From: a virus
Direction: 5' to 3' (one strand)
Length of the DNA: 25,732 nt
IMG/VR virus record: IMGVR_UViG_2791355071_000005
Location: 1 to 25,732 of that record
This document shows positions 1-24,943 of this stretch, one piece after another (within the stretch, counting starts at the first letter, position 1; the number at the start of each line of letters is the position of its first letter). Both the position numbers and the translations under genes were made by a program. Below the pieces are notes generated by a model. That model had not been told where the DNA came from. It did no database searches and was given only the letters and a program-made list of their open reading frames with translations.

Positions 1-747
1 ATGGCCTCAAAGGAAGTAACTGGTAAGACAGAACAAGAACTGCGGGAACTGCGCCGAGAGTTTGAGCAGTCTACCCGAGGCCAGCTTTACGACTTCGAGG
101 AGAGCTTCTGTCTTTCCAAGATTCCTCGCCAGCCGAAGGAGTACGATGGACCGACTCGATACTGCTATTCACGAAATTTAGTACACGGTAAGAATCGCTG
201 TAAGTTCCACGGTGGCATGGCTACCGGGAACACCGACAATCTGGACCCTTTAGCAAATATGAAGCACGGAATGAACGCAAAGCGTGAGAATCTGGTCAAG
301 GATTTCTCGGACGCCGATCGACAACTCTACGAGTGGATCGTGGAGGAGTGGCCGGTGGCTTACGACGTGAATCTTGACGACGACCCGCTTGCGGCTTACG
401 AGTTTCACGCGCTCGCTGTCGAGATCGTCCGTGCGGAGCGGGCAGAGGGCTTCCTGATTCGGGAGGGCGAAGACAATCAGAAGAAGGTCTTTGGCCCGGA
501 TGGGTCTGTCCACTTCGAAGACGTTCCGCACTATCTCGCGGATATGCTTCAGAGACAGCGGAAGCTGATCATGCGGATGGAGGATAATCTGGGGATTTCC
601 CGGAAGAAGCGGCTCAAGAACGAGCAGGCACAGGACGCGACGGACGTGATGAAGTCGTTTGCCGAGGTCGGGGCTTCTCTCATTGCCGACGCCGACACGG
701 AATACGATCCCGGCGCGTGGGATCCGGACGATCTGGATGCGGCTTGA
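1..747 (+). CDS. Putative terminase small subunit
   Basis: 248 aa with C...CKFHGGMATG (HGGxxTG-type motif) and a helical acidic C-terminal half, located upstream of the large terminase. Confidence 0.65.
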   Translation: MASKEVTGKTEQELRELRREFEQSTRGQLYDFEESFCLSKIPRQPKEYDGPTRYCYSRNLVHGKNRCKFHGGMATGNTDNLDPLANMKHGMNAKRENLVKDFSDADRQLYEWIVEEWPVAYDVNLDDDPLAAYEFHALAVEIVRAERAEGFLIREGEDNQKKVFGPDGSVHFEDVPHYLADMLQRQRKLIMRMEDNLGISRKKRLKNEQAQDATDVMKSFAEVGASLIADADTEYDPGAWDPDDLDAA

Positions 748-781
748 GTCGTTCTCGGCAGGATATTGGTTGGCTCCAGAG

Positions 782-1024
782 ATGGAGGTTACCACATACG
801 GCGGGAAGCGTGCTATCATTCAGGATGACGTGTACGACGAACTGGTGGGGGAGACCGGCAACGCGAGTCCGGTCGCTTTCGTCGGCGGTCGTCGCTACCC
901 GCTGTACCCGGATGGGTGGATTACGCACAACGTAGTCGCCCTTCCGGAAGACCGATCTTCTGCTCACGGACAGGACGCGTTACTCATTTCGAAAGGGAAC
1001 GGCCGAGAGGTGTTTTCCCTGTGA
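782..1024 (+). CDS. Hypothetical protein (80 aa)
   Basis: ATG at 782 within track ORF 659..1024. The stop overlaps the next GTG (GTGA). Confidence 0.6.
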   Translation: MEVTTYGGKRAIIQDDVYDELVGETGNASPVAFVGGRRYPLYPDGWITHNVVALPEDRSSAHGQDALLISKGNGREVFSL

Positions 1025-1128
1025 GTAGCGCGGCTATTTTTCTCGTCGACGCGTTCCCGCAGGCTTCGTTCTGCCGAGGCAGAGCCGAGGCCCCAGCCGG
1101 GGACTCGGGAGAGTGCGGGGACCGCTGA
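1021..1128 (+). CDS. Possible 35-aa micro-ORF
   Basis: GTG overlaps the upstream stop and its TGA overlaps the downstream ATG at 1128. This fills the gap exactly, but the peptide has no recognisable motif. Confidence 0.3.
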   Translation: MSSAAIFLVDAFPQASFCRGRAEAPAGDSGECGDR

Positions 1129-1340
1129 TGGCGACGACTTCCTCAGCGGGTCCACGGGACGGCCTGAAGAAACCGGCCGACATTGAGGTATTCCGGGTCA
1201 CTCCGGAAGATGAGAGCTATATGGCCGATCACGAGCGTCCTGTGGTGGTCGTGATGTGGCACGGAAACGGCTACGAGCGCGACGACTGCTGGATTCAGAT
1301 TGACCAGGAAGCCGCGTGCGATCTCGATTCTTGGCAGTAA
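1128..1340 (+). CDS. Hypothetical protein (70 aa)
   Basis: ATG at 1128, acidic composition typical of haloarchaeal proteins, immediately upstream of terL. Confidence 0.6.
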   Translation: MATTSSAGPRDGLKKPADIEVFRVTPEDESYMADHERPVVVVMWHGNGYERDDCWIQIDQEAACDLDSWQ

Positions 1341-1363
1341 TAGAGAAAATCCGAGACTAATAC

Positions 1364-3064
1364 ATGAATCAGGACGTTCTTAGAGACTTTGCCGACCAAC
1401 TCGGCGTCGAGGAAGACGTTATCGAGGATCGTTGGCAGGGGCGTCCTGATCGGCTGGCGGAGGACATTTTCCAGATTCAGGACATGGATTCCGGCCTGAT
1501 CCGAGATTTGGAGCTGTTCGACACCCAGAGGAAGGCCATTCACGCCTATTTCTACGGGGACGCCGACACGATTAACAACTACAAGGGCCGGCGTATCGGC
1601 TATTCGTTCGTTTACGTGGTCGCCTTCCTGCTGGAAGGGATGTTGGTGCCGAACTCGGTCTATCCTATCGTTTCTCGGAAGTTCGAGCAGGCCACCAACC
1701 GAATCAACGACATTCAGAAGCTGATCGACAACGCGAAAGTCGAGATTCCGACCGATAAGGACAATCGGGACGAAATTATCCTCTGGAACGGCTCCAAGTA
1801 CAAGGCGTATTCCGGCGATCCCGACGCCTCTCGGGGAGACGACTCCGCAAGAGCCGTTCTCCTTGATGAAATGGCCTTCATTGAGAACCAAGAGAAAGTC
1901 TCGCGGGCGTTTGGTGCGTTCCTCGCGCTCGGGAAGGGCCGTAAGATGGTCCAAGTTTCGACGCCGAACGTCGAGAACGACCTATTCATGTCTACCCACA
2001 GACGCGGGTCGCCGAATGGGTACGACGAAGACGGCAATCGGATTGGCGTTATCTCGATCGAACAGCCGTCGTTCTGGAACGCCGAGGAGATCGACGTTCA
2101 CACCCCGCTGACGCAACAGGAGACGCGGCCGGTGCGGCCGGACATGAACATCGAGCGGATCGAGGAGGAGAGAGCGGCCGATCCCGAGGGTTTCGGACAA
2201 GAGTATCTCTGTCGTCCGATTGTGGACGAGTATCGGTTCTTTTCGGTCGAATCTATTGAGGGGGCGATGGAGCGCGGCGAGAAGGCGTCGTTCCTCACCG
2301 GCCTCAACGTCCCGAATAGGGCGGATCTTCGTGTTCTCGGGGTGGACATTGGCATCAGCCACGACGACACGGTGATTCAGGTGTTCGATCACATTGACGA
2401 TCGACGTCTTCACCGCTACTCGGAGGTAGTGACCGACGATCTGCTTGGAGACCACGGCTTCCAGAATCCGGATCGGGCGAACGCGGAGCAGGTGGTGGCT
2501 CGGATAGCCTACGTGTTCCGGCAGATGGACGCGGATCTGGTCGTTCTAGACCGGACGGGTCCGGGGGAGACGTTCGATCGACAGTTGACGGCCAAGCTCG
2601 GCCGGGCGGTGGTCGGCTTCAACTTCTCTGACAAGCGGAAGGTCGAGGAGATGATGGGGGACATGAACAGCGCCCTGCGGAACGGGCGTGTCTCTCTGAT
2701 TCCGGATGACCGCTTGAAAGACGAATTATCGTCTATCATCAAGGAGAAGAAGGAGGATTGGTCCGTTCCCAAGTTTTCTGGGAAGGACAACTCCGAGACG
2801 GGGAAGGACGACACGGCTATGGCGGCTGTGTTAGGGGCCTTCCCGCCTGGTTATGCGGTCGCGCCGGGACGGAACGCTGATCAGCGTTCGACAGCGGCTC
2901 CAGAACCCGCTGAAAGCGGTGGAGGGTCGGAGCCACCGCGACCGGACCCAAAACAGGCCGCCGCGAAGCCGGCGTCCGGGGCGTGCGGTGCGGCTCGGGT
3001 ACGACAACGAGGCGGTGGGTACAGACGCGGTTCTAACTACAGCTCGCGCCACTCTCGGCGCTAA
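1364..3064 (+). CDS. terL: Terminase large subunit
   Basis: Walker A-like YKGRRIGYS, Walker B VLLDEMAF, motif QVSTP, and RNase H-like nuclease acidic motifs LGVDIG, LDRTG and KDDTAMA. Confidence 0.93.
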   Translation: MNQDVLRDFADQLGVEEDVIEDRWQGRPDRLAEDIFQIQDMDSGLIRDLELFDTQRKAIHAYFYGDADTINNYKGRRIGYSFVYVVAFLLEGMLVPNSVYPIVSRKFEQATNRINDIQKLIDNAKVEIPTDKDNRDEIILWNGSKYKAYSGDPDASRGDDSARAVLLDEMAFIENQEKVSRAFGAFLALGKGRKMVQVSTPNVENDLFMSTHRRGSPNGYDEDGNRIGVISIEQPSFWNAEEIDVHTPLTQQETRPVRPDMNIERIEEERAADPEGFGQEYLCRPIVDEYRFFSVESIEGAMERGEKASFLTGLNVPNRADLRVLGVDIGISHDDTVIQVFDHIDDRRLHRYSEVVTDDLLGDHGFQNPDRANAEQVVARIAYVFRQMDADLVVLDRTGPGETFDRQLTAKLGRAVVGFNFSDKRKVEEMMGDMNSALRNGRVSLIPDDRLKDELSSIIKEKKEDWSVPKFSGKDNSETGKDDTAMAAVLGAFPPGYAVAPGRNADQRSTAAPEPAESGGGSEPPRPDPKQAAAKPASGACGAARVRQRGGGYRRGSNYSSRHSRR

Positions 3065-3075
3065 ATCTATTCTAC

Positions 3076-4515
3076 ATGGGCGACATTCAGGACGAAATAC
3101 TACAAAAGGCCAGTAATGGCACTCTGCCGGGACAAGAGTATCCTGGACAGTTCGCGCTCGATTCGCCCAAAGCGGTTGTCAGGCGGGCTTCGGGGCAGGG
3201 AGGGAAGCCCCGTGAATCCGAGGCCCCGGAAGCGAAGATAGCGGAGTACCGCCTTATCGCCGATACCGATCCCCACGTTGGGGAGGCCATTGATACGCTG
3301 GTCGATTACCTCGTTGGTTCGGGCTACAACATAGCACCCGCGAACATCGTGGGGACCGACGAGGAACAGACACCGGAAGACGTTGCTCCGATGAAGCAGT
3401 TGGTGGAGTCGTCGGACTTTGAAGAGGTCTTGTTTCAATGGGTATGGCACGCTCTGGTTGACGGAACGGGGTTCTTGGAGATTGTCGTCGAGGACGACGT
3501 GTTCAAGCCAAAGGTTCTGCCGACCGAGCTGATGGAGATTCAGGCCGACAAGTTCGGGAACCCGGTTGAGTATATCCTTGAACCTCCGACCGGCAACGAG
3601 ATCAAGTTCAAGCCATACGATCTCGCGGTACTCTCGTTCCACAAGCACCCTGGCGAGGACTTCGGAAGGAGTCTGATCGAGCGGTGTGAGGAGCAGGCGG
3701 ATATGCTCCGGGACATGGAAATCGACATGGCCCGGTTTATTGCGACCAAGGCCTATCCGCCCGTGATTTGGAAGCTCGGGTCGGACGAACGCCCGTGGAC
3801 GCAGGATCAGATTGACGGCTGGCTCGATACGGTTTCGGAGATCGAGCCGGAGTCCATGCTGGCGGTCGGCCACGACGTTGACCACGATATTGTGGGCGTT
3901 ACCAGCACGTCGTCTACCAGCGGCGCTATGCGGCTGGAACCTGTCTTCCACCACCTACTTCGTCGTATCTTCACGGCTCTCGGCCTTCCTGCCTTCCTGG
4001 GCAACATTACCGGAGACGAGACGAAGAACGAGGCCGTCGCGGTCATGCCGAAGTTCGATCGGCGGATTCAGCGATACCGGCGTATCATCAAGTCAGCCAT
4101 TCGCCACCAGATCTTCGTTAGTATCCTTGCGGGAGATTCGGACCCTGCGGAGGCTAACGTTTTACCGCCCGACTTTGAGTTCGGCCAGCACTCCAGCGAG
4201 GAGGAGCGGCTGGACACAGACATGGCGATCAAACTGGTGAACAATGGTCTACTCACTTTCGAGGCCGCCGCCGAGCGAATAGGAATTGACCCAGAAACGG
4301 AGCTTCCCCAGGAGGGGGATTTGGACGAGCATATCATCAAGATCCAGCAACTCGCCGGGAAGGGGGATAACATTCAGAACCCCGATGGTGGCTACCCGAC
4401 CGATACCGGCGGTGGAGCCGAGTCGGCAGGTGGTGAGGTGAAGACCCGACAGAATCCGGAGCGAGATACTTCTGGAGGCAACAGCCGCAATCAGCAAGCC
4501 CAGACGGAAGCATAA
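3076..4515 (+). CDS. Portal protein
   Basis: 479 aa directly after terL. It has portal-like segments (HALVDGTGFLE, HPGEDFGRSLIE, ALGLPAFLG) and a low-complexity C-terminus. Confidence 0.85.
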   Translation: MGDIQDEILQKASNGTLPGQEYPGQFALDSPKAVVRRASGQGGKPRESEAPEAKIAEYRLIADTDPHVGEAIDTLVDYLVGSGYNIAPANIVGTDEEQTPEDVAPMKQLVESSDFEEVLFQWVWHALVDGTGFLEIVVEDDVFKPKVLPTELMEIQADKFGNPVEYILEPPTGNEIKFKPYDLAVLSFHKHPGEDFGRSLIERCEEQADMLRDMEIDMARFIATKAYPPVIWKLGSDERPWTQDQIDGWLDTVSEIEPESMLAVGHDVDHDIVGVTSTSSTSGAMRLEPVFHHLLRRIFTALGLPAFLGNITGDETKNEAVAVMPKFDRRIQRYRRIIKSAIRHQIFVSILAGDSDPAEANVLPPDFEFGQHSSEEERLDTDMAIKLVNNGLLTFEAAAERIGIDPETELPQEGDLDEHIIKIQQLAGKGDNIQNPDGGYPTDTGGGAESAGGEVKTRQNPERDTSGGNSRNQQAQTEA

Positions 4516-4518
4516 GAG

Positions 4519-4791
4519 ATGTCAAACGACAAGAGAGATCCGTTTGACTTCAAGGCATTACAGCGGGAGGAAGAATCGGCTATCCTTCACCGGCTGGATG
4601 AGCGAACCGAGCGTATAGACAGTCGAATCGAACGAATGGACGGGCGGGTTCAAGAGCAGGACGTTCGGCTCTCTGAACACGACGACAGGATACAACGAAA
4701 TACGACTATCATCAATGCGATCACTTTCGGCTTTGGTTCGTTTGTCGCCGCTGTCATGGCGAAGTTAGGCGGGTTTATACGGATATTCTAA
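4519..4791 (+). CDS. Small coiled-coil protein with C-terminal hydrophobic anchor (XhlA/holin-like architecture)
   Basis: Heptad-like RLDERTERIDSRIERMDGRV...LSEHDDRI followed by the hydrophobic segment IINAITFGFGSFVAAVMAKLGGFI. Confidence 0.6.
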   Translation: MSNDKRDPFDFKALQREEESAILHRLDERTERIDSRIERMDGRVQEQDVRLSEHDDRIQRNTTIINAITFGFGSFVAAVMAKLGGFIRIF

Positions 4792-4792
4792 C

Positions 4793-5434
4793 ATGGATAG
4801 CGACGTTAAACAGCAAGAAGGCGACGAGGCGAGCGTGGGGTGGAACATTACGTTCTCGCTCCCGGAGACGGTCGTTGATTCGCTTGACGAGGGATTCAAC
4901 AAGCACGGGGTTCGGGAACACGACGACGGTTCTATTGATGTTATTTTTGCGGCGATGGAGCCGGGCGTCCGACGCGGCGTGGAAGTGACCGATTCGTTCC
5001 TCCAGAACGTTTCTCGTCACAACTACGGAAGACGTCTTCCGCTTCAGTTCGACCATTCGCGCTCCCAGAGAGCGAACGTCGGCTGGATTGACCCGGAGAA
5101 CGTCAGGTTCTCAGACGGGTTCTTGCGGGTGATGGCTCACATTCCGAATACTGGTTCTCAGATTCGGACGGACACGATTAACGACTTTACCCACGACCCG
5201 CCCGCGATCAGCGACGGATCGGTTGGGTTCGACCCCCGGACGATCGAGGTCGAGCGACCTAGCGAGCGCGGGGAAGACCCGGTGTTCGTTGACGCCCGGC
5301 TTCAGGAGTTTAGTTTGACTCCGTTCCCGGCCGGGTACGACAACGGTGGGCTGACGCCTGCCTTTTCCGAGGTAGTCGGCCAATCTATGACCCCCGTTTG
5401 GGGCGAGAGTCGACTGTTGGCCCGGAAAATCTGA
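4793..5434 (+). CDS. Prohead (capsid maturation) protease
   Basis: Candidate catalytic motifs LQFDHS (His), DGSVGF (Ser) and LQEFSLTPFPA. It lies between portal and scaffold. Confidence 0.8.
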   Translation: MDSDVKQQEGDEASVGWNITFSLPETVVDSLDEGFNKHGVREHDDGSIDVIFAAMEPGVRRGVEVTDSFLQNVSRHNYGRRLPLQFDHSRSQRANVGWIDPENVRFSDGFLRVMAHIPNTGSQIRTDTINDFTHDPPAISDGSVGFDPRTIEVERPSERGEDPVFVDARLQEFSLTPFPAGYDNGGLTPAFSEVVGQSMTPVWGESRLLARKI

Positions 5435-5457
5435 CAATTATCTACTACTGATTTACT

Positions 5458-5940
5458 ATGTACGAGTTCAGTCTTGACACGCCCGTTGAGGATCTGGACG
5501 AAGCGGATCTTCGTTCGACCCTCGACGAGTTCATGGAGAAGCACGAGGAGAACGTTGAGGAGTTTTCGGCCGTGGAGGCCGACCGAGACGAGTTCAGCGA
5601 GAAGGTGGAAAGCCTTGAGGCGGAGGTTTCGGAGTACGCCGAGACTGCCGGGGCGCTCCAGGAGAAGTTCGCGGAGGTCGTCGCCGAGGAGAGTCCCCTG
5701 TTCGACGCCGATGAAGTGGCCGAGCGGTTCTCCCTTGAGGAACTGATTTCGAAGGCCGACGCCCTCGGGGCCTTCTCGCTGGCTACGGAAGTCGGCGAGG
5801 CCGCTGACGACGATGCCGAGGAGAGCGAGGGTTCGACCTTCGCCGACAAGCCGGAGCGCGCTACTGTCCCCGAGGACACCAAGACGAAGTTCCGCGAGCA
5901 GGCCGAGAGCGACCTTCGGGCCGTTCTGGGCGATTACTAA
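5458..5940 (+). CDS. Probable scaffolding protein
   Basis: 160 aa, extremely acidic and helical/coiled-coil, between the protease and the capsid genes. Confidence 0.6.
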   Translation: MYEFSLDTPVEDLDEADLRSTLDEFMEKHEENVEEFSAVEADRDEFSEKVESLEAEVSEYAETAGALQEKFAEVVAEESPLFDADEVAERFSLEELISKADALGAFSLATEVGEAADDDAEESEGSTFADKPERATVPEDTKTKFREQAESDLRAVLGDY

Positions 5941-5959
5941 ATTTTCTATCTGATTTTCA

Positions 5960-6430
5960 ATGGCCCACATTCGCATTGCGACTGGTGCTGAACAGCCTAT
6001 CAACCGTGACGCCGCCGTGTCCCAGCTTGCCGGCGAGGAAGGCGATCTCGTTGGCATGAATCCAGACGGGGATTGGGTGGCCGCCGACGCCGACTCTGGG
6101 GTTGCCCAGAAGGCGTCTGGTGTCCTTGCGGCTCCCGTCACCGACCCCGCCGACTTCCCGAACGAGGAACTTCGTATTATCGTTGAGAGCGAGCGCGAGC
6201 TTGTCGGCGATACGCGTATTGCCGTCGTGAAGTACGGTGTCATTCTGGAGAACGCCGACGAGGATTGGGGCTTCACTCCCGGCGAGCCTGTCTATCTCGG
6301 CCCCGGTGGTGGCTTCACCCAGACCAAGCCCTCGGCGGTTGGCGATCTCGTTCAGGTCGTCGGCGAGGCGACGGATGACGGCGAGGCGGTGTTCCTCGAC
6401 GTTGAGACCGGCTACGACGTTGTGGCCTGA
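5960..6430 (+). CDS. Probable capsid decoration/minor capsid protein
   Basis: 156 aa, Gly/Val-rich beta-type sequence (GDLVGM...AADAD; PGEPVYLGPGGGFT...GDLVQVVGEA), immediately upstream of the MCP. Confidence 0.7.
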   Translation: MAHIRIATGAEQPINRDAAVSQLAGEEGDLVGMNPDGDWVAADADSGVAQKASGVLAAPVTDPADFPNEELRIIVESERELVGDTRIAVVKYGVILENADEDWGFTPGEPVYLGPGGGFTQTKPSAVGDLVQVVGEATDDGEAVFLDVETGYDVVA

Positions 6431-6467
6431 ACGACTGCTAACAGTTTCTATTTGAGGTTTTTCTAAA

Positions 6468-7448
6468 ATGGCTAACCCTTCGCGGAAGCGCGAACTGACG
6501 ACGAAAGACGACGTGCCGCTGTCCGACCTGCTCGGCTACGGTATGGAATTGATTGAGACTTACCGGGAGGCACCCCGGACCTTCCTTTCTACCTTCACTC
6601 AGGAGGTCTCCAGCCGCGTCTTCATGGCCCGCACGGGCGACATGACGTGGAACGAACTGGCGGAGATGGAACACGCCCGCACGGGTACTCTGGACCGGAG
6701 CCAAATGGCGTTCTCGGTCAAGTCCTACGGACGTTCGCTTGGCTACTCGCGTGAGTTTATCGAGGACAACCCCTCGGAAATGCTCCGCGAGGAGATGGCC
6801 GCGATGATTCGCGGTGCCGACGACAAGGAGTTCGAGGTTCTGTTCGACGTTCTCAAGAACGGTGTCGCTGACGGCACCGAACTCTGGTACATTCCACAGG
6901 ACTACGCGGGACAGTCGTTCTCGAACACCCATAACCACACCTACGCCGACACCGAGGCGCTGTTCGGTGACGCGAACGGCCACGCGGTCTCGGATCACAT
7001 CCGCGCGGCGAACAAGGATCTTCGGGAACACGGCTACCGCCCGGTGGTCGCGCTCGTTTCCCATGACGTTGCGGCCGAGGCGGTCGCGGCCCGAACCGAT
7101 GGGCAGAACTACCACATCCCCGAGGCCGAGGGGCTTCGTGAGGGCGCTCTGCCGGAGCAGACGCTTATCGAGGACGGCGTTCGACTCGTTCAGACGGCGT
7201 GGCTCAACGGTGACGAAGCACAGGACGTGTACGTTATCTCCCAGAACGGCATGAACGGCGCTCCGATTAAGACGAACTACCCGCGCCCCGTCGAGCTTAC
7301 CGACAACACGGGCGCTCCGATCGGGGGCGCTGGTGGCTCCTACGGCGACCCGGCGGCCCTTCTCGGTGCCTACGGCTCCATGCGGATGGGCGCGAAAATG
7401 GCTGACCCGCTCGCGGCCGTCAAGTTCACCGCTGACAACATCGCGTAA
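6468..7448 (+). CDS. Major capsid protein (HK97-fold expected)
   Basis: 326 aa with strongly biased codon usage, in the canonical position. It contains YGRSLGYSREFIEDN, typical of this capsid class. Confidence 0.85.
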   Translation: MANPSRKRELTTKDDVPLSDLLGYGMELIETYREAPRTFLSTFTQEVSSRVFMARTGDMTWNELAEMEHARTGTLDRSQMAFSVKSYGRSLGYSREFIEDNPSEMLREEMAAMIRGADDKEFEVLFDVLKNGVADGTELWYIPQDYAGQSFSNTHNHTYADTEALFGDANGHAVSDHIRAANKDLREHGYRPVVALVSHDVAAEAVAARTDGQNYHIPEAEGLREGALPEQTLIEDGVRLVQTAWLNGDEAQDVYVISQNGMNGAPIKTNYPRPVELTDNTGAPIGGAGGSYGDPAALLGAYGSMRMGAKMADPLAAVKFTADNIA

Positions 7449-7470
7449 GCGGTGTTGCTGAAACCGTCCC

Positions 7471-7818
7471 ATGACACACGAATATTCTAAGGAAGACCTG
7501 ATTCGGATGGGGCGGTCAGAACTTCGGGCCGCTCACGGTCTTAACAACGACTCTGAGATTTCTGACGAGTTTCTGGTCGAGCAGATCGAGGCGTTCGCTG
7601 ATGAAGTGTACGCCGAAGTGGGCTACGAACCGGATCTTGGACCGGGAACCCCCGGCTATGACGCGGTTCGGTTCTATGGCCTCATTCGGGCGGCGTACTT
7701 TTTGAGTCCCGAGACCGGACCTACGTCGATCAGCCACGCTCGGCGGTTCGACTACGAAGACGATCAAACACTCATTCATTGGCGTAACCGCTTGGTGCGG
7801 GCGCTTTCTACCCTCTAA
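7471..7818 (+). CDS. Head-tail adaptor-like protein (paralog of the next gene)
   Basis: Follows the MCP and shares an E-x-RA...ISD-x-x-L-x-E...E-x-x-A-x-x-G pattern with 7818..8237. Confidence 0.5.
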   Translation: MTHEYSKEDLIRMGRSELRAAHGLNNDSEISDEFLVEQIEAFADEVYAEVGYEPDLGPGTPGYDAVRFYGLIRAAYFLSPETGPTSISHARRFDYEDDQTLIHWRNRLVRALSTL

Positions 7819-8237
7819 TGGCAGTTGACGATAATACCCTGAAAGCAGAGGTCCGGGCCTTGACCGATTACGGAGTGACGATTATCTCGGACGATGACCT
7901 CCAGGAAGTCGTTGACCTATCGAAGCGCGAACTTCTCGCCGACATAGGAACCCAGGAAGTGGACTTGTACGACGACCTGAACGCGGAACGGGCATTGTTC
8001 TGGTTGTCGTGTATCTTTCTCAAGGTCAAGTCCGGCGAGATCTACGCCCCTTCGTTCTCGATCTCCGAGTTGAGCGTTCGGCAGTCGAACTTCACGGAGC
8101 GGCACGGTATCTGGATGGACAACTTCCGGAAGCACTACCGAGCTATGGACGGCGGCGCTCCGGTCGGTCACACGAAGTCGAACCGGCCCGATCGAGCCTA
8201 CGGATTCGACAACTCCGCTACGTCTAACGGTCTATGA
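7818..8237 (+). CDS. Head-tail adaptor (SPP1 gp15-like)
   Basis: 139 aa, helical N-terminus followed by SFSISELSV, in the canonical position after the MCP. Confidence 0.65.
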   Translation: MAVDDNTLKAEVRALTDYGVTIISDDDLQEVVDLSKRELLADIGTQEVDLYDDLNAERALFWLSCIFLKVKSGEIYAPSFSISELSVRQSNFTERHGIWMDNFRKHYRAMDGGAPVGHTKSNRPDRAYGFDNSATSNGL

Positions 8238-8596
8238 TTCTCCCGGCCCAGAAGACTGCGGCTTCGGTCGCTATCAGCCGATACGGGGAAGACGCGCTCA
8301 TTCTACGCCCAGTTGACGACGACAGCGCGGTGGATGGATACGGCAAGACGGCGGAAGATTCGTGGGAAGAGGAAGCCGTGGAGCCGGTCGTTCGGGTCTA
8401 CCAGCGGGGAGCGGCCCCAAGCCAAGGTCGGGTTACCGGGGGACGGTATTTGACTGAAAGTCCGGTTCTGATCTTTATCGCGGATTCGCTGGTTTCGGAG
8501 GGTTTCCGGGTCTCTTACGGAACTTCTGTTTACGAGATAGATTCGCTGACTCGGTATCCGACCCACATCGAGGCAGAGACAACTTCTGTTGGATAA
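8234..8596 (+). CDS. Head closure/stopper protein (SPP1 gp16-like)
   Basis: 120 aa, beta-rich (EGFRVSYGTSVYEIDS), ATGA-coupled to the adaptor gene. Confidence 0.6.
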   Translation: MILPAQKTAASVAISRYGEDALILRPVDDDSAVDGYGKTAEDSWEEEAVEPVVRVYQRGAAPSQGRVTGGRYLTESPVLIFIADSLVSEGFRVSYGTSVYEIDSLTRYPTHIEAETTSVG

Positions 8597-8602
8597 TCTC
8601 AC

Positions 8603-10360
8603 ATGGTTACATTTCGCGTTGACGTAGACGGCAAGAAGGTCGGCCGTCAAATCAAGCGTCGTATTGAGGACGGCGTTGACTCGGCGGCTGACGACATCAA
8701 CGACGAAATGCGGCAGGTGGCGAAAGGGAAGATTCGTTCAGAGAACGCGATATTTACTCGGGAGCTGATCTCTGAGTTCACCGACGCCAAGGTGACGTTC
8801 GGAGACAGCACCGTTGCGTCTCTCCGAAACTTGGCTCAACACGCTCCGTATCAGGAGGAAGGGGTAAGCGGAACCCAAGTTCAGCGAGATACCCCCTACA
8901 AGTACAAAGACAAGAAGCCGCCGCTGGATTCGCTGATTCCGTGGGTGATCGAGAACCTACAAGGGTCGTACTGGCCCGACGATCTCGGTGACCCTCCGGC
9001 TGGATTCTTCGATCCTGATGGCCCAGCACCTTCCGGCAGTTCTCGTTCTTCCGGGTCTGGTGGCGTTAACACGTCTTCAGATAGCAACTCCGGCGTTCCG
9101 ATAGACGAAGACCGGCTGTACGTTGAAGAAGACGGCTTCCGGTCTCATGGTCGGAACGAGGAGTTCTACGGGGACGAACTGTACCCGAATCAGCGAATTG
9201 TCGTCTTCAACGAGAACGAGAAGGAGTACCTTCGGGCGACTATCAAGACGTTCGGTAGTTCGGACCAGTCGTTCAAATTTGAATTAGACGACGTTGACGG
9301 CTCCTTATTCAAACTCTCTAATAACGGGGCTGGACCGTGGCGACTCATAGCGACGGAGGTGTGGGAGGAACTTGACGAAGAAACCCAGCGGGAACGGCTG
9401 GCTGGGTACTTTGACGACTTCATTTCCACCAGCTATCAGTCGTGGCTCCAGCCGAGCTACAAACAGAACTACGGCATGACGGAGCCGGATCCGTCTGCTA
9501 TTGAAAGTGCCCGAGACCTGTGGACTGGTCCGATTTTCGATCGGTACAAGGACAAGTCCGTTGTACGAGAGCAGGTGCGGAACTTTGAGGCGATCGTCTC
9601 GCCGTCGAATCAGAGTCTACAGAGCAACCCTACTCGGGGTGGTGCGATTCTCGATCTCGACGGAACGACTCGCTTTGTCGGTCTCTTTCTGTCCGACGAC
9701 CAGTTTGCGAACCTCTCTCATTGGAGCTTAAGCGACCGGCGAATGGTGTTGGGACATGAAGCCAAACACAGTCTTAGTTCGGTTCTGGGATACGCAAGAA
9801 CCGGAGATTCGACGTACAAGGCGCTGTTAACGAGTTCCGAGTGGAACCCGTCTGGTCTTCAAACGAACGCCGATCCAGAGCTTCCGTCCCACGCCGAGGA
9901 ACTGCTGTTCAGAGATAACGATAACAGCGGGAAGGTGCTGGGCGGATTGGGGTGGCTGAAAGACGCATACTCCGCCGCGGAGGGTGGCGAAGACGGAATT
10001 GCGTCCTACCAGCCAGATATCGAAACAGGACGGGACCAGCCGTATAGACGGCTTCACGAAGCGGCGAATCGCGTCTGGTGGCTTCAAGCAGTTGCTGGGC
10101 GCGATCTCTATCGAGAGAAAGGCGACCTCACGGAGATAAACGACGCCAGCATATTCGTTCGGAGTACGTATAGTGCCCAAAATGCCGCTGAAACTCTCGC
10201 TACGCTTGAGGAAGTCATGTGGGGAGAGTGGGACGAATGGGAAGACCGACTAGAGTATCTGGTTGCGTTGTACCCGTGGTTCGTTGAGACGTGGCTGGAC
10301 GGCCATACCCCCCCAGAAAAGGTCAAAGACTTCTTGATAGAACTCGGAGTTGAGGTATAA
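8603..10360 (+). CDS. HK97-gp10-like neck protein N-terminal part fused to a zinc-metallopeptidase-like region
   Basis: aa about 1-125 carry neck motifs HAPYQEEG and KKPPLDSLIPWV. A Gly/Ser linker follows, then HEAKH (aa 385-389, nt 9755-9769) and STYSAQNAAETLA (aa 521-533). Confidence 0.75.
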   Translation: MVTFRVDVDGKKVGRQIKRRIEDGVDSAADDINDEMRQVAKGKIRSENAIFTRELISEFTDAKVTFGDSTVASLRNLAQHAPYQEEGVSGTQVQRDTPYKYKDKKPPLDSLIPWVIENLQGSYWPDDLGDPPAGFFDPDGPAPSGSSRSSGSGGVNTSSDSNSGVPIDEDRLYVEEDGFRSHGRNEEFYGDELYPNQRIVVFNENEKEYLRATIKTFGSSDQSFKFELDDVDGSLFKLSNNGAGPWRLIATEVWEELDEETQRERLAGYFDDFISTSYQSWLQPSYKQNYGMTEPDPSAIESARDLWTGPIFDRYKDKSVVREQVRNFEAIVSPSNQSLQSNPTRGGAILDLDGTTRFVGLFLSDDQFANLSHWSLSDRRMVLGHEAKHSLSSVLGYARTGDSTYKALLTSSEWNPSGLQTNADPELPSHAEELLFRDNDNSGKVLGGLGWLKDAYSAAEGGEDGIASYQPDIETGRDQPYRRLHEAANRVWWLQAVAGRDLYREKGDLTEINDASIFVRSTYSAQNAAETLATLEEVMWGEWDEWEDRLEYLVALYPWFVETWLDGHTPPEKVKDFLIELGVEV

Positions 10361-10662
10361 TGGTGTGGACTCTCCGGCTCTATGACGAGAACGGGGTTGA
10401 GATTGGGTACGTGGAAAAACCCGATCGAGAGACGTACAACTACGCGATTACCCACCCCGAACCGGACTGGGAGAACCTGGAGAGGCGGCTGAAAAACTAT
10501 TGGACGCTCCAAGTCGAGGAAGACTACGGAATGGATAGTCCAGAGTGGACGGCCGATCACGGCCCCATGACGTTACCGAGGCCGCCCGAAGAACATCTCC
10601 GACTGATACAGGAGCGCCTGTCTCACCCGGCGGTTGCGGATACTGAATTGACGGACGAGTAG
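10360..10662 (+). CDS. Hypothetical 100-aa acidic protein (candidate inhibitor/immunity protein)
   Basis: ATG overlaps the TAA of the peptidase fusion gene (TAATG). No recognised family. Confidence 0.65.
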   Translation: MVWTLRLYDENGVEIGYVEKPDRETYNYAITHPEPDWENLERRLKNYWTLQVEEDYGMDSPEWTADHGPMTLPRPPEEHLRLIQERLSHPAVADTELTDE

Positions 10663-10676
10663 CCCCCTTCTTGCCG

Positions 10677-10859
10677 ATGACGGTTGATTTAGACAGCCTT
10701 GACCCAGCGGTGCGTGAGCTTGCCTTCTGGTTACAGGACAAAATCTACAGAGAGGGTATTGAGGGGATCCACTTCATGCGGGACGCCCGGCTGTGGGCGG
10801 AGGACAACGCCGCCGACGTAACGGCTCGGGAAATTACGAAGGAGGTTAACAAGCTGTGA
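10677..10859 (+). CDS. Separate C-terminal part of the gp10-like neck protein (60 aa)
   Basis: LAFWLQDKIYREGIEGIHFMRDA matches the A-F-x-I-x-x-x-I-x-x-x-G...F-x-x-x-A ending typical of gp10-like neck proteins. Its stop overlaps the next GTG. Confidence 0.6.
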   Translation: MTVDLDSLDPAVRELAFWLQDKIYREGIEGIHFMRDARLWAEDNAADVTAREITKEVNKL

Positions 10860-11368
10860 AAGAACAGGAAATCATTTTTAAAGCTGTTTCTGACCTACAG
10901 GCGGCACTCCCTTCTGCGTATCCGGTTCGGACTCGTGGTGGAGACGCTGGGGCCGGCCCTCCGTTGTGTCTTCTTGGCTGGGATTCGACCCGACTCGGCG
11001 AGAATGGCGCGAACCCACTCGCCGGAATTGTCCGGGATGAGGGTGGAACTGCGACCGGACGCGAGCTTCATCGGTATCATCTGATGGAACTGGATGTGAC
11101 GATCCGCACGTATGATGAGAGTGACCGCGACGTGTTGCTTTCTGACGTAGCTGACGCCTTCCTGCCGTATGAGTACGACGCGTCTGTTTTCCACGACGAC
11201 ACAACTGAGTGGGAGATCGGTGACCCCTCGCCGCGATCGAATCCCGTGGTTGAACCCGACTGGTACGAAGGAGGGCTGACGATTCGGTTCAGATACGTAA
11301 GCCGGGTCGAGCAGGACGCCAGCGCCCTCACGTCTACGGAATACACCGTGGACGGAAGCGGAGTATAG
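10856..11368 (+). CDS. Tail terminator/tail completion protein
   Basis: 170 aa with an alpha/beta pattern (MELDVTIRTYDESDRDVLLSDVADAF), directly upstream of the sheath gene. Confidence 0.65.
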   Translation: MKEQEIIFKAVSDLQAALPSAYPVRTRGGDAGAGPPLCLLGWDSTRLGENGANPLAGIVRDEGGTATGRELHRYHLMELDVTIRTYDESDRDVLLSDVADAFLPYEYDASVFHDDTTEWEIGDPSPRSNPVVEPDWYEGGLTIRFRYVSRVEQDASALTSTEYTVDGSGV

Positions 11369-11402
11369 CGAACAACTCTACTAACAACTTTTAGAATTTT
11401 TT

Positions 11403-12698
11403 ATGGTTACTATTGGAAGCACTACCCTTCCGGGAGTCCAGAGCAACGTTGAATCTGCGTCCAGCGCGGGCGTTAACGTCAATGCGGCGGCTCAGGTCGG
11501 ACTCGTCGGACAGGCAGACTTAGCGAACGGAACGGCGGAAGCAAACACGGTCTATTCGGTCACGACTCCGGTGAAGGCCCGAACGTGGTTCGGTGAGGGA
11601 TCGCCACTTGCGGAGAACTGTGTTGACGCTCTCACCGAAGGCGCATACCCGGTCTACGCGGTCGCACCGGAGCGGGTTTCGGTGGACGGAGAGGATCTAT
11701 CCGGCCTTGGTTCCACAAGCGGTGTTCTGGAGAACACCCCCGGCCCGGAAGAAGCGTCGGCGTACTCGTTCTCGGTTGATTCGACCGAGAAGACTGCGGT
11801 TGTCACGATGGACGACCCCAGCACGAAGTCTCCAGGAACGGACGAGGTGTACGTTAACCCCGTGACTGGAGAGTTTGAGCTTGACGCCGCTCCCAGCACG
11901 TCGGGGTCGGCTGATTACGCGTACTTCGATTACCCGAGCGCGACCGAGACCCTGTACTCGGAGGAGGCTGACCGGCTCGATCTCGTTGGTGTCCTGAACG
12001 AGAACGGCGATGTTGTTTCGGACGCCCACGACGAGGCCAAGGAACACGAAAGCCGGTATGAGTTTACGGTCGTGGTTGCTGGGGCGGCTCCCCGGCTCAC
12101 GACGACCGGGTACACCAACCCGTTCGACTCGTCCCGCGTCCAGTTGCTCTACCCGAGCCGGAACGCCGACGACGAGAGCATCATTGGGTCGTACATCGGC
12201 CTTCGGGCGGTTCTGGGCATCAACAACAGCCCGATGTGGAAGCGGCTTCAGACCCAGCGCGACCTTTCGGAGACCCTTTCGAAGTCTGAACAGCTTGAGC
12301 TGATCGGCGAGAAGGTCGTCCCCGTTGCTGATGAGAGTCGTGGGGCGCGTATCGTGGAAGACCTGACCTGTGTTAGCGACGAGAACTCCGAGGAAGACGC
12401 CATGCGACAGGTGCTTCACCGGCTTATCGTTGACTACGTTACCGAGGTAGTCTACCGCACTTCGGAGCGGTTCATCGGCGAACTTCACACGCAGGCGGCC
12501 CGCAACGCCCTGTCGACGATTATCGGTGGGGAGATGGACCGGCTTCTGACTCAGAACTCGATTCTGGACTACAGCGTGACCGTCGAGAAGGTTGACGCCA
12601 TGACCGCTTCGGTGGACGTGGGGATTGACACGGTGGACCCGCTCCGTAACATTCTCGCCACGATTGCGGCCGGAGAAGTTCAGCGAACGTTGGCCTAA
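11403..12698 (+). CDS. Tail sheath protein
   Basis: 431 aa. N-terminal LPGVQS...VGLVG...FGEGSPL and C-terminal RLIVDYV...RFIGELH...VDVGIDTVDPLRNI are typical sheath motifs. Confidence 0.9.
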   Translation: MVTIGSTTLPGVQSNVESASSAGVNVNAAAQVGLVGQADLANGTAEANTVYSVTTPVKARTWFGEGSPLAENCVDALTEGAYPVYAVAPERVSVDGEDLSGLGSTSGVLENTPGPEEASAYSFSVDSTEKTAVVTMDDPSTKSPGTDEVYVNPVTGEFELDAAPSTSGSADYAYFDYPSATETLYSEEADRLDLVGVLNENGDVVSDAHDEAKEHESRYEFTVVVAGAAPRLTTTGYTNPFDSSRVQLLYPSRNADDESIIGSYIGLRAVLGINNSPMWKRLQTQRDLSETLSKSEQLELIGEKVVPVADESRGARIVEDLTCVSDENSEEDAMRQVLHRLIVDYVTEVVYRTSERFIGELHTQAARNALSTIIGGEMDRLLTQNSILDYSVTVEKVDAMTASVDVGIDTVDPLRNILATIAAGEVQRTLA

Positions 12699-23009: not shown

Positions 23010-24017
23010 TCATATATCCTTCAGATATTCTCGACGACGTTCGGCTTTCTCGTCGTGCGAACCTTTGTCATAGTGTTTGTCGAGGATCTTCCCGCTCATG
23101 TTGACTCGTTCGCTGGTCACGTCTTTCGGCTGGCCGGCGTTTTGGGCGGCGGTCACGTAGCCCCGGCGGATGGCGTGGGGGCTGACCGAGCCGGGACACT
23201 TGTTCGCTTGATCGAACGGGATCGCTTCACAGGTGTCGGGGTCTCTGTTGTATGGGCACTTCCCGCCGTTGTGGTGACATGGCCGGGTTGACGTGTAGAC
23301 GTACTTTTGGATCGTAGTCCGTGCGGCCCGCCCTTCGCGGGTGCTGATTAGGGGCCTTCGTCCGAATTTGTCGGTCGTTTCGTCTCTCCGGTCGTTAATG
23401 TAGTCGGAGATTATCTCGGCGGAGTCGGGTGAGAGGATCACGTCCCGTTCGCTCTTCTCTTTCCGCTTGAGGGGGGTCTTGGTTTCGGGCCGGTGTCGGA
23501 TTTCCAGAGCCGGGCGAGCTTGGTCGAAGTCTCGCACGTCTAAGGCCCGAAGGCCACTTAGCCGCATCCCGCCTTTCCAGAGGATCAGCATGACGGCGTG
23601 ACGCGTGCTGGCGTATTCGTATTTTGAGAGGTACTGGAGTATGGACTTCGCTTCTTGCCGCGTGAGGTATTCGTCGCAGATTTCGTCGTCTTCGGAGACT
23701 TTGGGGATTCGGATGAGGTCGCTGAGTCCGGTGGGAACGGCTTGGATTGTCGCGGCGTATTCGATGAAGTTCCGGACGGTGTTCATGTCGTTCTTCGCCG
23801 TGATGGGCTTCACGTCTTCCAGTCTCCACTCTTTGAAGCGGTCGATTAGCTCGGAGTCGAGGTCGTTCATGTCCTCGATTCCGCGCTCGTCGCACCATTC
23901 GAGGAAGCGGCGGAGGGTGGTGCTGTAGTTGTAGTGGGTCTTGTCTGTGATGTGGCCTTCTACGTCTCGGAGGTAGCGGTTCACGGCGTCTTTCGGCGGC
24001 GTGGGTTTGAGTTTCAT
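23010..24017 (-). CDS. int: Tyrosine integrase (335 aa; haloarchaeal SNJ2-like size and N-terminus)
   Basis: Catalytic set GMRLSGL (R), TPLK (K), HAIRR (HxxR) and KHYD (Y). The start MKLKPTPPKDAVNRYL is preceded by AGGAG 8 nt upstream. Confidence 0.92.
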   Translation of the reverse strand: MKLKPTPPKDAVNRYLRDVEGHITDKTHYNYSTTLRRFLEWCDERGIEDMNDLDSELIDRFKEWRLEDVKPITAKNDMNTVRNFIEYAATIQAVPTGLSDLIRIPKVSEDDEICDEYLTRQEAKSILQYLSKYEYASTRHAVMLILWKGGMRLSGLRALDVRDFDQARPALEIRHRPETKTPLKRKEKSERDVILSPDSAEIISDYINDRRDETTDKFGRRPLISTREGRAARTTIQKYVYTSTRPCHHNGGKCPYNRDPDTCEAIPFDQANKCPGSVSPHAIRRGYVTAAQNAGQPKDVTSERVNMSGKILDKHYDKGSHDEKAERRREYLKDI

Positions 24018-24100
24018 CGGTGGGTCTCCTGCCGGGGTCTGCTGGAGGCACGCCCGTCGATGGATCGGCGGTAGCGGGGCGGCCTGGAGGGCCGCTCCGC

Positions 24101-24128
24101 GTCGAGGGTTCAAATCCCTCCTCCGGCT
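24101..24128 (+). other. att core: 3' fragment of a tRNA gene, probably tRNA-Thr
   Basis: GTC + T-arm GAGGG-TTCAAAT-CCCTC + acceptor strand CTCCGGC + discriminator T. It resembles the 3' end of haloarchaeal tRNA-Thr(CGU) as recalled, and lies between the integrase and GC-richer host DNA. Confidence 0.8.
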
Positions 24129-24314
24129 CTCCTGCCGAGTGTGGCGAGACTGAAAGTTGAGAGAGGGATCTGAATCGGGGAACGGGCGTAGCGGACTGAC
24201 CGTGGCTCGCGACGTGCCCCTCCGGGCTTCCCCGACCGGATCACGCGCGCCGGCCGCCCTCGTCACCGGTTCCGCCGCCAACGCTTAACGGCGCAGACGG
24301 CGTCGATCGGGACG

Positions 24315-24809: not shown

Positions 24810-24943
24810 CCGGACGGACCCCCCGACCGAGACGGGGAGGCGGCCGGTCGCGTGCCCCGCCCGTGACGAGCGTCCCGGCCCCTCGGCGGGCCGTCGCGCT
24901 CGCCGACCAAACGACTCTTGTGGACGAGATCGTTTCGTCCGGT

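Follow-up and report, generated by a model that had tools for sequence, protein, structure and literature searches.

What is a protein of 585 residues, ending in what looks like a zinc metallopeptidase, doing among the neck genes of an archaeal tailed virus? The gene lies in a stretch of 25,732 nucleotides (the window; positions 1 to 25,732 of IMG/VR virus record IMGVR_UViG_2791355071_000005), which is an integrated tailed virus (provirus) of a salt-loving archaeon. A sequence-only reading of the window had proposed a gp10-like neck domain fused to a zinc metallopeptidase, and had suggested an ejected toxin, a protease against host defence proteins or an S-layer-cleaving enzyme as possible functions. 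How archaeal tailed viruses breach cells and counter host defence is very little known.

A tail-completion protein with a long extension

The open reading frame was found exactly as the sequence-only reading had given it. Its parts and neighbours are collected in Table 1. Searches of Pfam and NCBIfam and direct searches of PDB sequences with the 585-aa protein gave no match, and a PHROGs search returned families of "unknown function" only.

Table 1. Features in and around the gene for the tail-completion protein (TCP). Positions are nucleotides of the window.
Feature	Position	Strand	Basis or remark
Whole ORF, 585 aa, ATG start	8603..10360	+	TCP N-part, linker, beta-barrel, predicted gluzincin
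TCP N-part	8603..9007	+	End-to-end alignment with standalone 130-139-aa forms
Pro/Ser/Gly-rich linker, aa 136-164	9008..9094	+	S152 and G154 invariant in 9 homologues
Tudor/SH3-like small five-stranded beta-barrel, aa 165-256	9095..9370	+	AF2 model and fold matches
Predicted gluzincin metallopeptidase domain (lethal-factor/MtfA/PPEP type), aa 257-585	9371..10357	+	Fold matches, profile, ESM Atlas
HEAKH (H385, E386, H389)	9755..9769	+	Predicted zinc ligands H385 and H389; E386 predicted general base
N489, invariant Asn	10067..10069	+	On long helix preceding the Glu helix
Y523-x6-E530 (YSAQNAAE)	10169..10192	+	Predicted catalytic Tyr and third zinc ligand
100-aa gene, translationally coupled (TAATG overlap)	10360..10662	+	Co-inherited with the zincin extension
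62-aa ORF	10671..10859	+	Detached C-part of the same TCP, by homology
Head completion protein, SPP1 gp16-like	8234..8596	+	phrog_17802; syntenic with annotated HRTV-25 gp18
Tail completion/terminator gene, SPP1 gp17-like	10856..11368	+	phrog_12281; sheath and tube genes next

The gene order in the window is SPP1 gp16-like gene, TCP gene, two small ORFs and SPP1 gp17-like gene, and the TCP slot lies between the gp16-like and gp17-like genes in the same order in nine related loci. The earlier placement of the gene in the gp10-like slot, after the stopper and before the terminator, holds with the amendment that the two small ORFs intervene before the gp17-like gene. We assigned the window gene to this slot because of its synteny with annotated HRTV-25 and HRTV-27. 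Full-length homologues are found at this position in HRTV-25 (gp19, 47% identical) as well as in eight metagenomic or genomic loci. The sheath gene further downstream matches phrog_10244 (3e-143), and HRTV-25 gp22-24 are annotated as the gp17-like, sheath and tube genes. As had been claimed, no MuF gene is visible in the head module of the window.

The N-terminal domain has annotated relatives. HRTV-27 gp16, described as "HK97 gp10-like protein", aligns with it over the whole length (36% identity, E 9e-7). Nep1 of HF2 matches profile A9 at E 1e-34, and aa 1-129 of HF2 Nep1 were assigned to HK97 gp10 (Ne1) by VIRFAM (PMC7230728). The sequence KKPPLDSLIPWV, given earlier for the neck motifs, was located at aa 104-115; conservation of the domain extends to about aa 135. 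The window N-domain itself did not match PF04883 in Pfam. Four of nine standalone relatives matched this family only, all below threshold (E 0.0011-0.067), with a best score of 20.3 bits against a gathering cut-off of 21.4 and coverage of profile positions 9-78 of 78. In a fold search of 48,161 chains, the N-domain model, with a pLDDT of only 63, had the 80alpha/SaPI1 TCP gp51 as its top match (9mu2_P; Z 5.5, rmsd 3.4, 72 aa, 21% identity), followed by rows scoring at most 4.8. Foldseek against the PDB gave no significant match for this domain. Based on the slot and the homology to HRTV-27 gp16, the N-terminus is indeed a gp10-like domain, and the "neck" protein of the window is a tail-completion protein.

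Homology further indicates that the TCP gene of the window is split into an N-part and a detached 62-aa C-part. Standalone TCP forms stop where the window linker begins. The 62-aa ORF is homologous to HRTV-27 gp17 (E 2e-9) and also to the C-terminal segment of bacterial-virus homologues of about 172 aa (E 7e-7, alignment A11), and a 190-aa protein (P0148) represents an unsplit archaeal form. Pfam found nothing in either the approximately 172-aa homologues or the unsplit form. Insertion of the extension as the cause of the split was considered and rejected, since relatives without the extension are split as well.

A predicted gluzincin at the C-terminus

The Pro/Gly/Ser linker was found where it had been placed, its Ser/Gly stretch PSGSSRSSGSGGVNTSSDSNSG covering aa 143-164 (nt 9029-9094). 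The AF2 model of the region that follows, comprising barrel and zincin, has a pLDDT of 88 and a pTM of 0.89. The barrel matches Tudor domains (Z 5.0-5.6, rmsd 2.3-2.7, 58-66 aa), and two relatives (P0002 and P0006) have additional inserted segments in the barrel region.

For the zincin, all ten highest-ranking chains in the structure search were of lethal-factor, MtfA-like or zincin type. Matches included the MtfA-like 3khi (Z 7.8, rmsd 4.9, 177 of 223 aa), 4l7a (Z 6.9, rmsd 4.8, 202 aa), anthrax lethal factor 1yqy (Z 6.9, rmsd 4.9, 167 aa) and PPEP-2 (Z 5.9, rmsd 5.0, 158 aa), with all Z scores below 8, values that allow for no more than a common arrangement. Foldseek against the PDB found no significant match for the C-region, and an ESM Atlas shape search with its model returned a weak M48 peptidase row alone (TM 0.27/0.37). 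The nearest named ESM Atlas clusters of the zincin were zincin-like, ATLF and M90, at 0.92-0.93. Against PDB sequences, the zincin family profile matched zinc proteases only. At the HExxH it aligned with thermolysin (E 0.0015) and with lethal factor (E 0.004). A profile of the last 117 residues gave only chance matches to PDB sequences (CLASP, O-GlcNAcase), and the lethal-factor-like Y-x6-E helix is therefore undetectable by sequence alone.

The family comprises at least 138 sequence clusters, and no Pfam or NCBIfam model covers the zincin domain. At gathering score, the window protein did not match Pfam ATLF (PF07737) or Peptidase_M90 (PF06167); among 60 relatives there were two M90 matches, both below threshold (best E 0.0032). 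PF18818, the Pfam model for the MPTase of polyvalent proteins, matched neither the window protein nor, at E <= 0.001, any of the 60 members of alignment A4, and was absent from the best 25 of the 59 families found for 60 relatives at E <= 1.

The HExxH reported at nt 9755-9769 is HEAKH, and the reported distal motif STYSAQNAAETLA at nt 10163-10201 holds Y523 and E530. In the model, strands 164-170, 183-187 and 194-198 are followed by a helix (212-230) with H221, E222 and H225, which correspond to H385, E386 and H389. E530 is on a helix (model residues 364-376) downstream of the HExxH helix. The combination of HExxH with Y-x3-N-x2-E, taken earlier as the mark of lethal-factor-like gluzincins, turned out to be a family-wide signature. 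Of 130 full-length relatives, 129 retain the HExxH, which is invariant in alignments A2, A4 and A5, while Y523 and E530 are each kept in 146 of the 147 family members; N489 is an asparagine in 144. Conservation of the motifs persists in relatives down to about 20% identity. As only 0.009 HExxH motifs are expected by chance per protein of this composition, and as conservation is near-universal, the HExxH of the window is not a chance occurrence. The spacing of Y523 and E530 is that of Tyr728 and Glu735 in lethal factor (PMC3496994). E486 was tried as third zinc ligand and rejected, with a glutamate in only 89 of 147 members.

By its model and conserved residues, the C-terminal domain is a predicted gluzincin, as the sequence-only reading had it, and is probably distantly like lethal factor, MtfA and PPEP, its nearest structural neighbours. 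The predicted catalytic set of H385, E386, H389, Y523 and E530 is intact.

An optional cassette with a coupled gene

Extensions of the N-domain had been expected to vary between homologues, and they do. On N-domains that are 52-84% identical, we found three states: no extension, the zincin, or the HF2-type extension. Even N-domains sharing 52-80% identity can differ in having or lacking the extension. The HF2-type extension is unrelated to the zincin and occurs in viruses of the same genus; HF2-type Nep1 (1037 aa) lacks an HExxH and does not match the window zincin. Pairwise identity averages 67% in the TCP domain and 40% in the zincin. TCP and zincin identities are uncorrelated (rho 0.17), and those of barrel and zincin co-vary (rho 0.86).

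A homologue of the 100-aa gene is found directly downstream in eight of the nine loci with a zincin-bearing TCP, and the ninth (HJTV-3) has a 99-aa gene at the same position. In HRTV-25 the homologue is gp20. The gene is present in none of the seven loci whose TCP is without zincin. At the level of gene content, this shows co-variation of the small downstream gene with the zincin. The 100-aa protein matches no known family, and ESM Atlas was uninformative for it. Judging from the loci compared, the extension and the coupled 100-aa gene form an optional cassette, located precisely where the TCP gene is split.

The sequence-only reading had also described an AT-richer insert. The two 60-nt samples behind this claim are numerically right (GC 0.45 and 0.65), but GC content across the regions shows no difference: it is 0.558 in the N-domain, 0.531 in the barrel, 0.554 in the zincin and 0.56-0.58 in neighbouring neck genes, the provirus mean being 0.573 with an SD of 0.072 for 60-nt windows. 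The regional values do not differ from those of the neighbouring genes, there is no compositional sign of recent import, and we rejected the idea of a compositionally foreign insert.

The zincin is not confined to TCPs. It terminates large proteins that adjoin MuF-like head genes, and one protein after a terminase (L028, L029). One family member is fused with a portal domain and one with a GNAT domain, and standalone copies are found outside virion modules. Five members of 1385-1767 aa were examined as candidate portal fusions, and none of them matched the Pfam portal family, although one (P0082) comes after a terminase gene. The large proteins next to MuF-like genes and the portal fusion suggest a place in the head interior for these other carriers.

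Possible site and time of action

The cassette probably places the enzyme inside the virus particle. We infer that the protein is present in the virion, lies in its interior, is ejected and is catalytically active on some substrate, and that the 100-aa protein has a role alongside it. The full reading, in which the TCP-borne peptidase is interior cargo ejected ahead of the DNA with the 100-aa protein as its partner, has in our estimate an even chance of being correct. Gp51 of 80alpha, the sole solved TCP, is a monomer within the neck channel, where it closes off the end of the DNA and is bound to the tape measure (PMC11661146). Packaging and injection have already been proposed for lethal-factor-like peptidase domains that are carried by MuF or portal proteins (PMC5512222). 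In our reading, the TCP domain would bring the peptidase, in a single copy or a few, to the place within the neck where DNA end and tape measure meet, when the tail is completed. On infection, tape measure and TCP would exit via the tail tube before the DNA, so that the peptidase would be the first to reach the host envelope or cytoplasm. It might then cleave a host or viral protein, or release itself from the TCP. In the producing cell, the 100-aa protein could act as inhibitor, chaperone or assembly factor of the peptidase.

[quoted passage not shown] A folded domain of about 330 residues is wider, so an interior position needs an unfolded or extended state or a wider cavity. The location of TCPs is moreover not universal, because in T5 the TCP is a monomer at the tail tip, external to the tube, and a TCP is missing from most reconstructions of necks. 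In HF2, four major virion bands have been identified, and Nep1 was not among them (PMC7230728).

The peptidase could instead serve assembly: while the tail is completed, in the producing cell or within the nascent particle, it would cut the tape measure, a neck protein or the linker by which it is attached. Afterwards it would be discarded or inert, and it would not be directed against the host. We give this roughly one chance in four. TCP binds the N-termini of the tape measure directly, and the tape measure is often fragmented (PMC11661146); autoproteolytic processing has also been proposed as the chief role of packaged lethal-factor-like peptidases such as P1 DdrB (Iyer et al., PMC5512222). 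A cut at the conserved Ser/Gly linker (S152, G154) is attractive because the folded zincin is too big for the tube lumen. However, close relatives assemble with a bare TCP of 130-139 aa and no zincin in the module, and the zincin is therefore dispensable for tail completion. Its occurrence on unrelated carriers adjoining MuF-like genes also speaks against a processing role, and its fast divergence, independent of the TCP, together with a co-inherited partner gene fits conflict better than housekeeping.

A further possibility, and an improbable one, is that the TCP, or its split version, sits at the outside of the neck or tail and that barrel and zincin project on the linker like a collar or whisker, which would cleave S-layer or surface proteins at adsorption or release. 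The external TCP monomer at the T5 tail tip provides a precedent; a long flexible linker, a folded binding-type barrel and an enzyme together resemble an exposed appendage, and external display would accommodate a folded domain that exceeds the lumen. Cleavage of the S-layer from outside, one of the functions suggested earlier, is nevertheless unlikely because the one TCP that has been solved occupies the interior of the neck channel as a single copy. This luminal 80alpha TCP is also the top fold match of the N-domain. The neck of a long-tailed myovirus is also distant from the cell surface, the MuF-adjacent carriers and the portal fusion point to the head interior, and there is no sign of surface-binding repeats.

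Least probable, and in our view very unlikely, is an inactive relic or a non-peptidase HExxH domain (structural, spacer, binding module or oxygenase-like in its reaction): the failure of curated peptidase models to match, the HExxH oxygenase domain 8s5f among the weak fold matches (Z 4.4-5.1) and the unusually long and variable insert between HExxH and Glu helix (100-858 aa) would fit, but a relic should not keep all five catalytic-type residues invariant across a very divergent family, Tyr-x6-Glu is a signature found specifically in peptidases of the lethal-factor type, and the top matches are peptidases and span most of their catalytic domains.

The reading of an ejected peptidase cargo can be taken further. 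The TCP may be a cargo carrier of tailed viruses that has gone unrecognised, its single-copy zincin disabling a protein of the host envelope or defence at DNA entry, and the 100-aa protein may be the matching inhibitor that restrains the zincin in producing or lysogenic cells. We put this forward tentatively and regard it as rather doubtful. Because the TCP lies between DNA end and tape measure, cargo fused to it would be the last protein out before the genome. If this were true, archaeal viruses would have in this cassette their own equivalent of toxin-immunity cassettes, exchanged between viruses at the TCP split point.

Novelty and significance

Earlier work has described "Nep1" genes of great length as well as lethal-factor-like peptidases that ride on MuF or portal proteins; the TCP as carrier, the present zincin family and its partner gene are not in prior work. 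The TCP thereby joins MuF and portal proteins as a structural carrier of enzymatic cargo, and a new zincin family is added that lies outside curated domain libraries. A testable biochemical function is gained for the "Nep1" genes of haloarchaeal myoviruses, which are long, hypervariable and have been annotated as "hypothetical" since HF1/HF2. As it took until 2025 for the TCP to be located in a virion, an enzyme tethered to it is a natural tag for its position in myoviruses and its ejection. HRTV-25, a cultured virus with the 47%-identical orthologue, is available for this purpose, as are zincin-free relatives for comparison.

Comparison with known systems

The "Nep1" genes of the HF1 group share both slot and carrier with the window gene. 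Their first ~129 aa match HK97 gp10 (VIRFAM Ne1), and the long divergent remainder, to which no function was given, varies among viruses and proviruses (Dyall-Smith et al., 2020, PMC7230728). Compared with HF2-type Nep1, the window protein belongs to a second extension class, which is shared with HRTV-25 and the HJTV-3 group, ends in the predicted gluzincin and comes with the extra 100-aa gene.

The MPTase domain of phage and plasmid polyvalent proteins is likewise a lethal-factor-like peptidase with HExxH and Glu, fused to a virion protein in a late-gene context (Iyer et al., 2017, PMC5512222). Packaging is predicted for such domains, as is a role in autoprocessing or as effectors once injected, and archaea were found to have few polyvalent proteins (PMC5512222). 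In contrast to these, the carrier in the window is a TCP (gp10, HK97 and "tail completion" have 0 occurrences in Iyer et al., 2017, PMC5512222), and the protein has one enzymatic domain only, with no second effector domain.

Lethal factor, MtfA (MEROPS M90) and PPEP (M34) are fold matches of the window domain, whose model has the HExxH on a helix and, as in lethal factor, Tyr and Glu seven apart on a later helix. The window domain, however, is only 10-14% identical to them, matches neither ATLF nor M90 in Pfam at threshold, and has 141 residues between HExxH and Glu (100-858 in the family), compared with about 45 in lethal factor. Its family also has the extra invariant Asn (N489). Unlike lethal factor, the window zincin is not a secreted toxin and sits in a virion gene module of an archaeal virus.

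Among TCPs, gp51 of 80alpha/SaPI1, lambda gpZ, SPP1 gp16.1 and HK97 gp10 have a gene position like that of the window TCP. Gp51 also has the same order of secondary structures as the window N-domain, with a long N-terminal helix, then a beta-hairpin, then a short helix. Known TCPs have about 110-190 aa and no enzyme, whereas the window TCP gene is in two pieces, with 450 additional residues on the N-part.

Polymorphic toxins fused to MuF in temperate phages likewise combine the conserved N-terminus of a virion protein with alternative C-terminal modules and a small coupled downstream gene. In the window system the carrier is a TCP instead, and the extensions come in the three states seen here and not as a large toxin repertoire.

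Provirus setting and the reading frame

The window covers a Hafunaviridae-like myovirus integrated in a haloarchaeal genome (assembly of 3.3 Mb). The gene order (terminase, Mu-type portal, prohead protease, decoration protein, major capsid protein, neck genes, sheath, tube, chaperone and tape measure) matches the annotation of Halorubrum tailed virus 25 (HRTV-25). The GC content of the flank past the integrase and tRNA genes is 71%, versus 57% for the provirus. A secreted-type SNase/Excalibur nuclease is encoded in this host flank (24785-25732).

Features of the neck region and of the provirus end
Feature	Position	Strand	Remark
TCP-zincin ORF	8603-10360	+	585 aa
100-aa gene	10360-10662	+	overlaps peptidase stop codon as TAATG
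62-aa ORF	10671-10859	+	detached C-terminal part of TCP; homology to HRTV-27 gp17 and ~172-aa homologues
Integrase	23010-24281	minus	right provirus end; 5' end overlaps tRNA-Ser(GGA)
tRNA-Ser(GGA)	24056-24129		right provirus end

The 585-aa frame is real, and the positions assigned in a sequence-only reading to its linker, HEAKH motif and distal motif were all exact. The same reading had described the C-terminal insert as AT-richer from two 60-nt samples, which were numerically correct. Over whole regions this description fails, as the GC content of the N-terminal domain (0.558), barrel (0.531) and zincin (0.554) shows no departure from the neighbours (0.56-0.58 in the adjacent neck genes; provirus mean 0.573, SD 0.072 over 60-nt windows).

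The C-terminal region contains a zincin

The AF2 model of aa 165-585, made from six homologues, was confident (pLDDT 88, pTM 0.89) and consisted of two parts. The first (aa 165-256) is a five-stranded barrel with matches to Tudor domains (Z 5.0-5.6, rmsd 2.3-2.7, 58-66 aa). The second (aa 257-585) is an alpha/beta domain, and its best structure matches, at modest Z values, were all zincins: MtfA-like 3khi (Z 7.8, rmsd 4.9, 177/223 aa), 4l7a (Z 6.9, rmsd 4.8, 202 aa), the anthrax lethal factor catalytic domain (Z 6.9, rmsd 4.9, 167 aa, residues 568-771) and Pro-Pro endopeptidase 2 (Z 5.9). Foldseek alone gave no significant match for the C-terminal region.

The assignment is supported by independent lines of evidence that agree. 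A search of the family profile against PDB sequences returned zinc proteases only, with thermolysin (E 0.0015) and lethal factor (E 0.004) both matched at the HExxH helix. When language-model features were compared, the closest named clusters in the ESM Atlas were zincin-like, ATLF (PF07737) and M90 (0.92-0.93). A BFVD search gave gp19 of HRTV-25 (TM 0.92); weaker matches were to large halovirus proteins, from HHTV-1 (E 8e-4) and HVTV-1 (E 0.012), and to an "endopeptidase M34" of an Erwinia phage (E 0.012). No Pfam or NCBIfam model, PF18818 included, matches the zincin.

When 1.84 billion representatives were searched with the family profile, 138 clusters were recovered at E <= 1e-3. HExxH was kept in 129/130 full-length family members, and its expected chance occurrence in the window protein is 0.009. 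Y523 and E530 were each present in 146/147 members and N489 in 144/147, E486 in only 89/147. In lethal factor, zinc is held by His686, His690 and Glu735, with Tyr728 participating in catalysis (PMC3496994). The Tyr-x6-Glu spacing of the zincin is identical to that of Tyr728/Glu735. An unusual feature is the length of the stretch that separates HExxH from the Glu helix: about 45 aa in lethal factor, 141 aa in the window protein and 100-858 aa across the family. We are highly confident of the domain identity of the TCP-zincin protein, and the zincin is probably an active enzyme.

The N-terminal domain is part of a split tail-completion protein

Residues 1-135 can be aligned over their full length with standalone 130-139-aa proteins that occupy the same slot in related viruses, among them HRTV-27 gp16, annotated as "HK97 gp10-like". 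Sub-threshold matches to PF04883, and no other relevant match, were found in 4/9 standalone relatives. The equivalent part of HF2 "Nep1" has been assigned by VIRFAM to HK97 gp10, i.e. Ne1 (PMC7230728). The AF2 model of aa 1-135 reached a pLDDT of only 63; of 48,161 chains compared with it, the best-scoring was the tail-completion protein (TCP) gp51 of 80alpha/SaPI1 (9mu2_P; Z 5.5, rmsd 3.4, 72 aa, 21% identity). The TCP class comprises HK97 gp10, lambda gpZ, SPP1 gp16.1 and 80alpha gp51, and in 80alpha one copy lies within the neck channel, capping the DNA end and bound to the tape-measure N-termini (PMC11661146).

The 62-aa ORF is homologous to a gene of 53-59 aa behind the short TCP of HRTV-27 and of two further loci (L031, L033), and to the C-terminal segment of ~172-aa proteins of bacterial viruses. 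Both parts form a single polypeptide in one archaeal relative (P0148, 190 aa). Since the 62-aa ORF is the C-terminal part of the TCP, the zincin extension and the 100-aa gene sit exactly between the two TCP halves. The split is also found in cassette-free relatives.

Extensions vary and the zincin travels with a putative partner gene

As the sequence-only reading had anticipated, C-terminal extensions vary among N-domain homologues, which fall into three states. A bare TCP is present in HRTV-27, L031/L032 and L033, and the L031 protein (P0150) is 65% identical to the window N-domain. TCP and zincin are joined in the window, HRTV-25, L022-L026, L036, L037 and the HJTV-3 group. In HF2, HRTV-8, HCTV-8 and HSTV-4 (L040-L043; locus 4501-7617), the TCP is the N-terminal part of Nep1 proteins (1037-1038 aa) whose extension, of about 900 aa, is unrelated. 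This HF2-type extension has no HExxH, zincin-profile match or Pfam match and therefore represents a second, separate module. Its four carriers share a genus with HJTV-3, with N-domains 75-84% identical. In the zincin-free close relative L031 (3375-5245), the genes that separate the major capsid gene from the head-completion gene include two insertions, one an extra gene of 78 aa and the other encoding a GLUG-motif protein of 544 aa.

Pairs of the nine full-length homologues were on average 67% identical in the TCP, 35% in the barrel and 40% in the zincin. Zincin identity was not predicted by TCP identity (rho 0.17) and barrel and zincin co-varied (rho 0.86), values that are descriptive only, being computed over non-independent pairs. 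A homologue of the 100-aa gene lies immediately downstream in 8 zincin loci, with a 99-aa positional counterpart in HJTV-3, and a counterpart was found in 0/7 non-zincin loci. The 100-aa gene matched no known family and no informative fold. In host genomes the zincin is sporadic (6/401 genomes of the class), with an open frame every time.

Other carriers of the zincin

In L028, a haloviral contig, the gene immediately before a MuF-like gene encodes a 745-aa protein with the same zincin at its C-terminal end. Here, a row of large proteins (583-11443; 671, 498, 945 and 745 aa) shares a ~45-aa motif (phrog_24083 positions 17-61); one contains a tRNA nucleotidyltransferase, and two, including the 745-aa protein, end in this zincin. 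The row resembles an array of cargo proteins for packaging. In L029, this zincin ends a 1767-aa protein whose gene follows a terminase gene after three small ORFs and precedes a MuF-like gene. Single family members carry a portal domain (Pfam, 1.5e-29), a portal PHROG match (2e-47) or a GNAT domain. Standalone zincin copies also exist outside virion modules. In L044 (7001-8337), a standalone 355-aa zincin of this family is followed by an overlapping 90-aa ORF, without detectable relation to the window 100-aa gene, and adjoins DEAD-box helicase and Rad51-like genes and no virion module.

Proposed role and comparison with known systems

We infer packaging and ejection, as well as a substrate and a role for the 100-aa partner. 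In our best reading, to which we give about an even chance, the TCP would tether the peptidase inside the virion, the peptidase would exit ahead of the DNA, and the 100-aa protein would act as its partner. Size is the main physical objection, because a folded 330-aa domain is larger than the tube lumen. The chief rival, in which the zincin serves tail completion as a processing protease, is weakened by close relatives that lack a zincin altogether. The peptidase might instead be displayed externally, as the TCP of T5 is external, but the zincin's other carriers make this less likely.

The mix of carriers fits the theme of "polyvalent proteins", in which lethal-factor-like peptidases on MuF or portal proteins are proposed to autoprocess or to be injected after packaging, and in which archaea were reported to be poor (PMC5512222). 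TCP carriers and the present zincin family do not figure in that study. Long Nep1 genes, lethal-factor-like packaged peptidases and a luminal TCP were each already known separately. What is new is their combination, with the TCP as carrier, together with an uncatalogued zincin family and a co-inherited putative partner gene that lies where the TCP gene is split.
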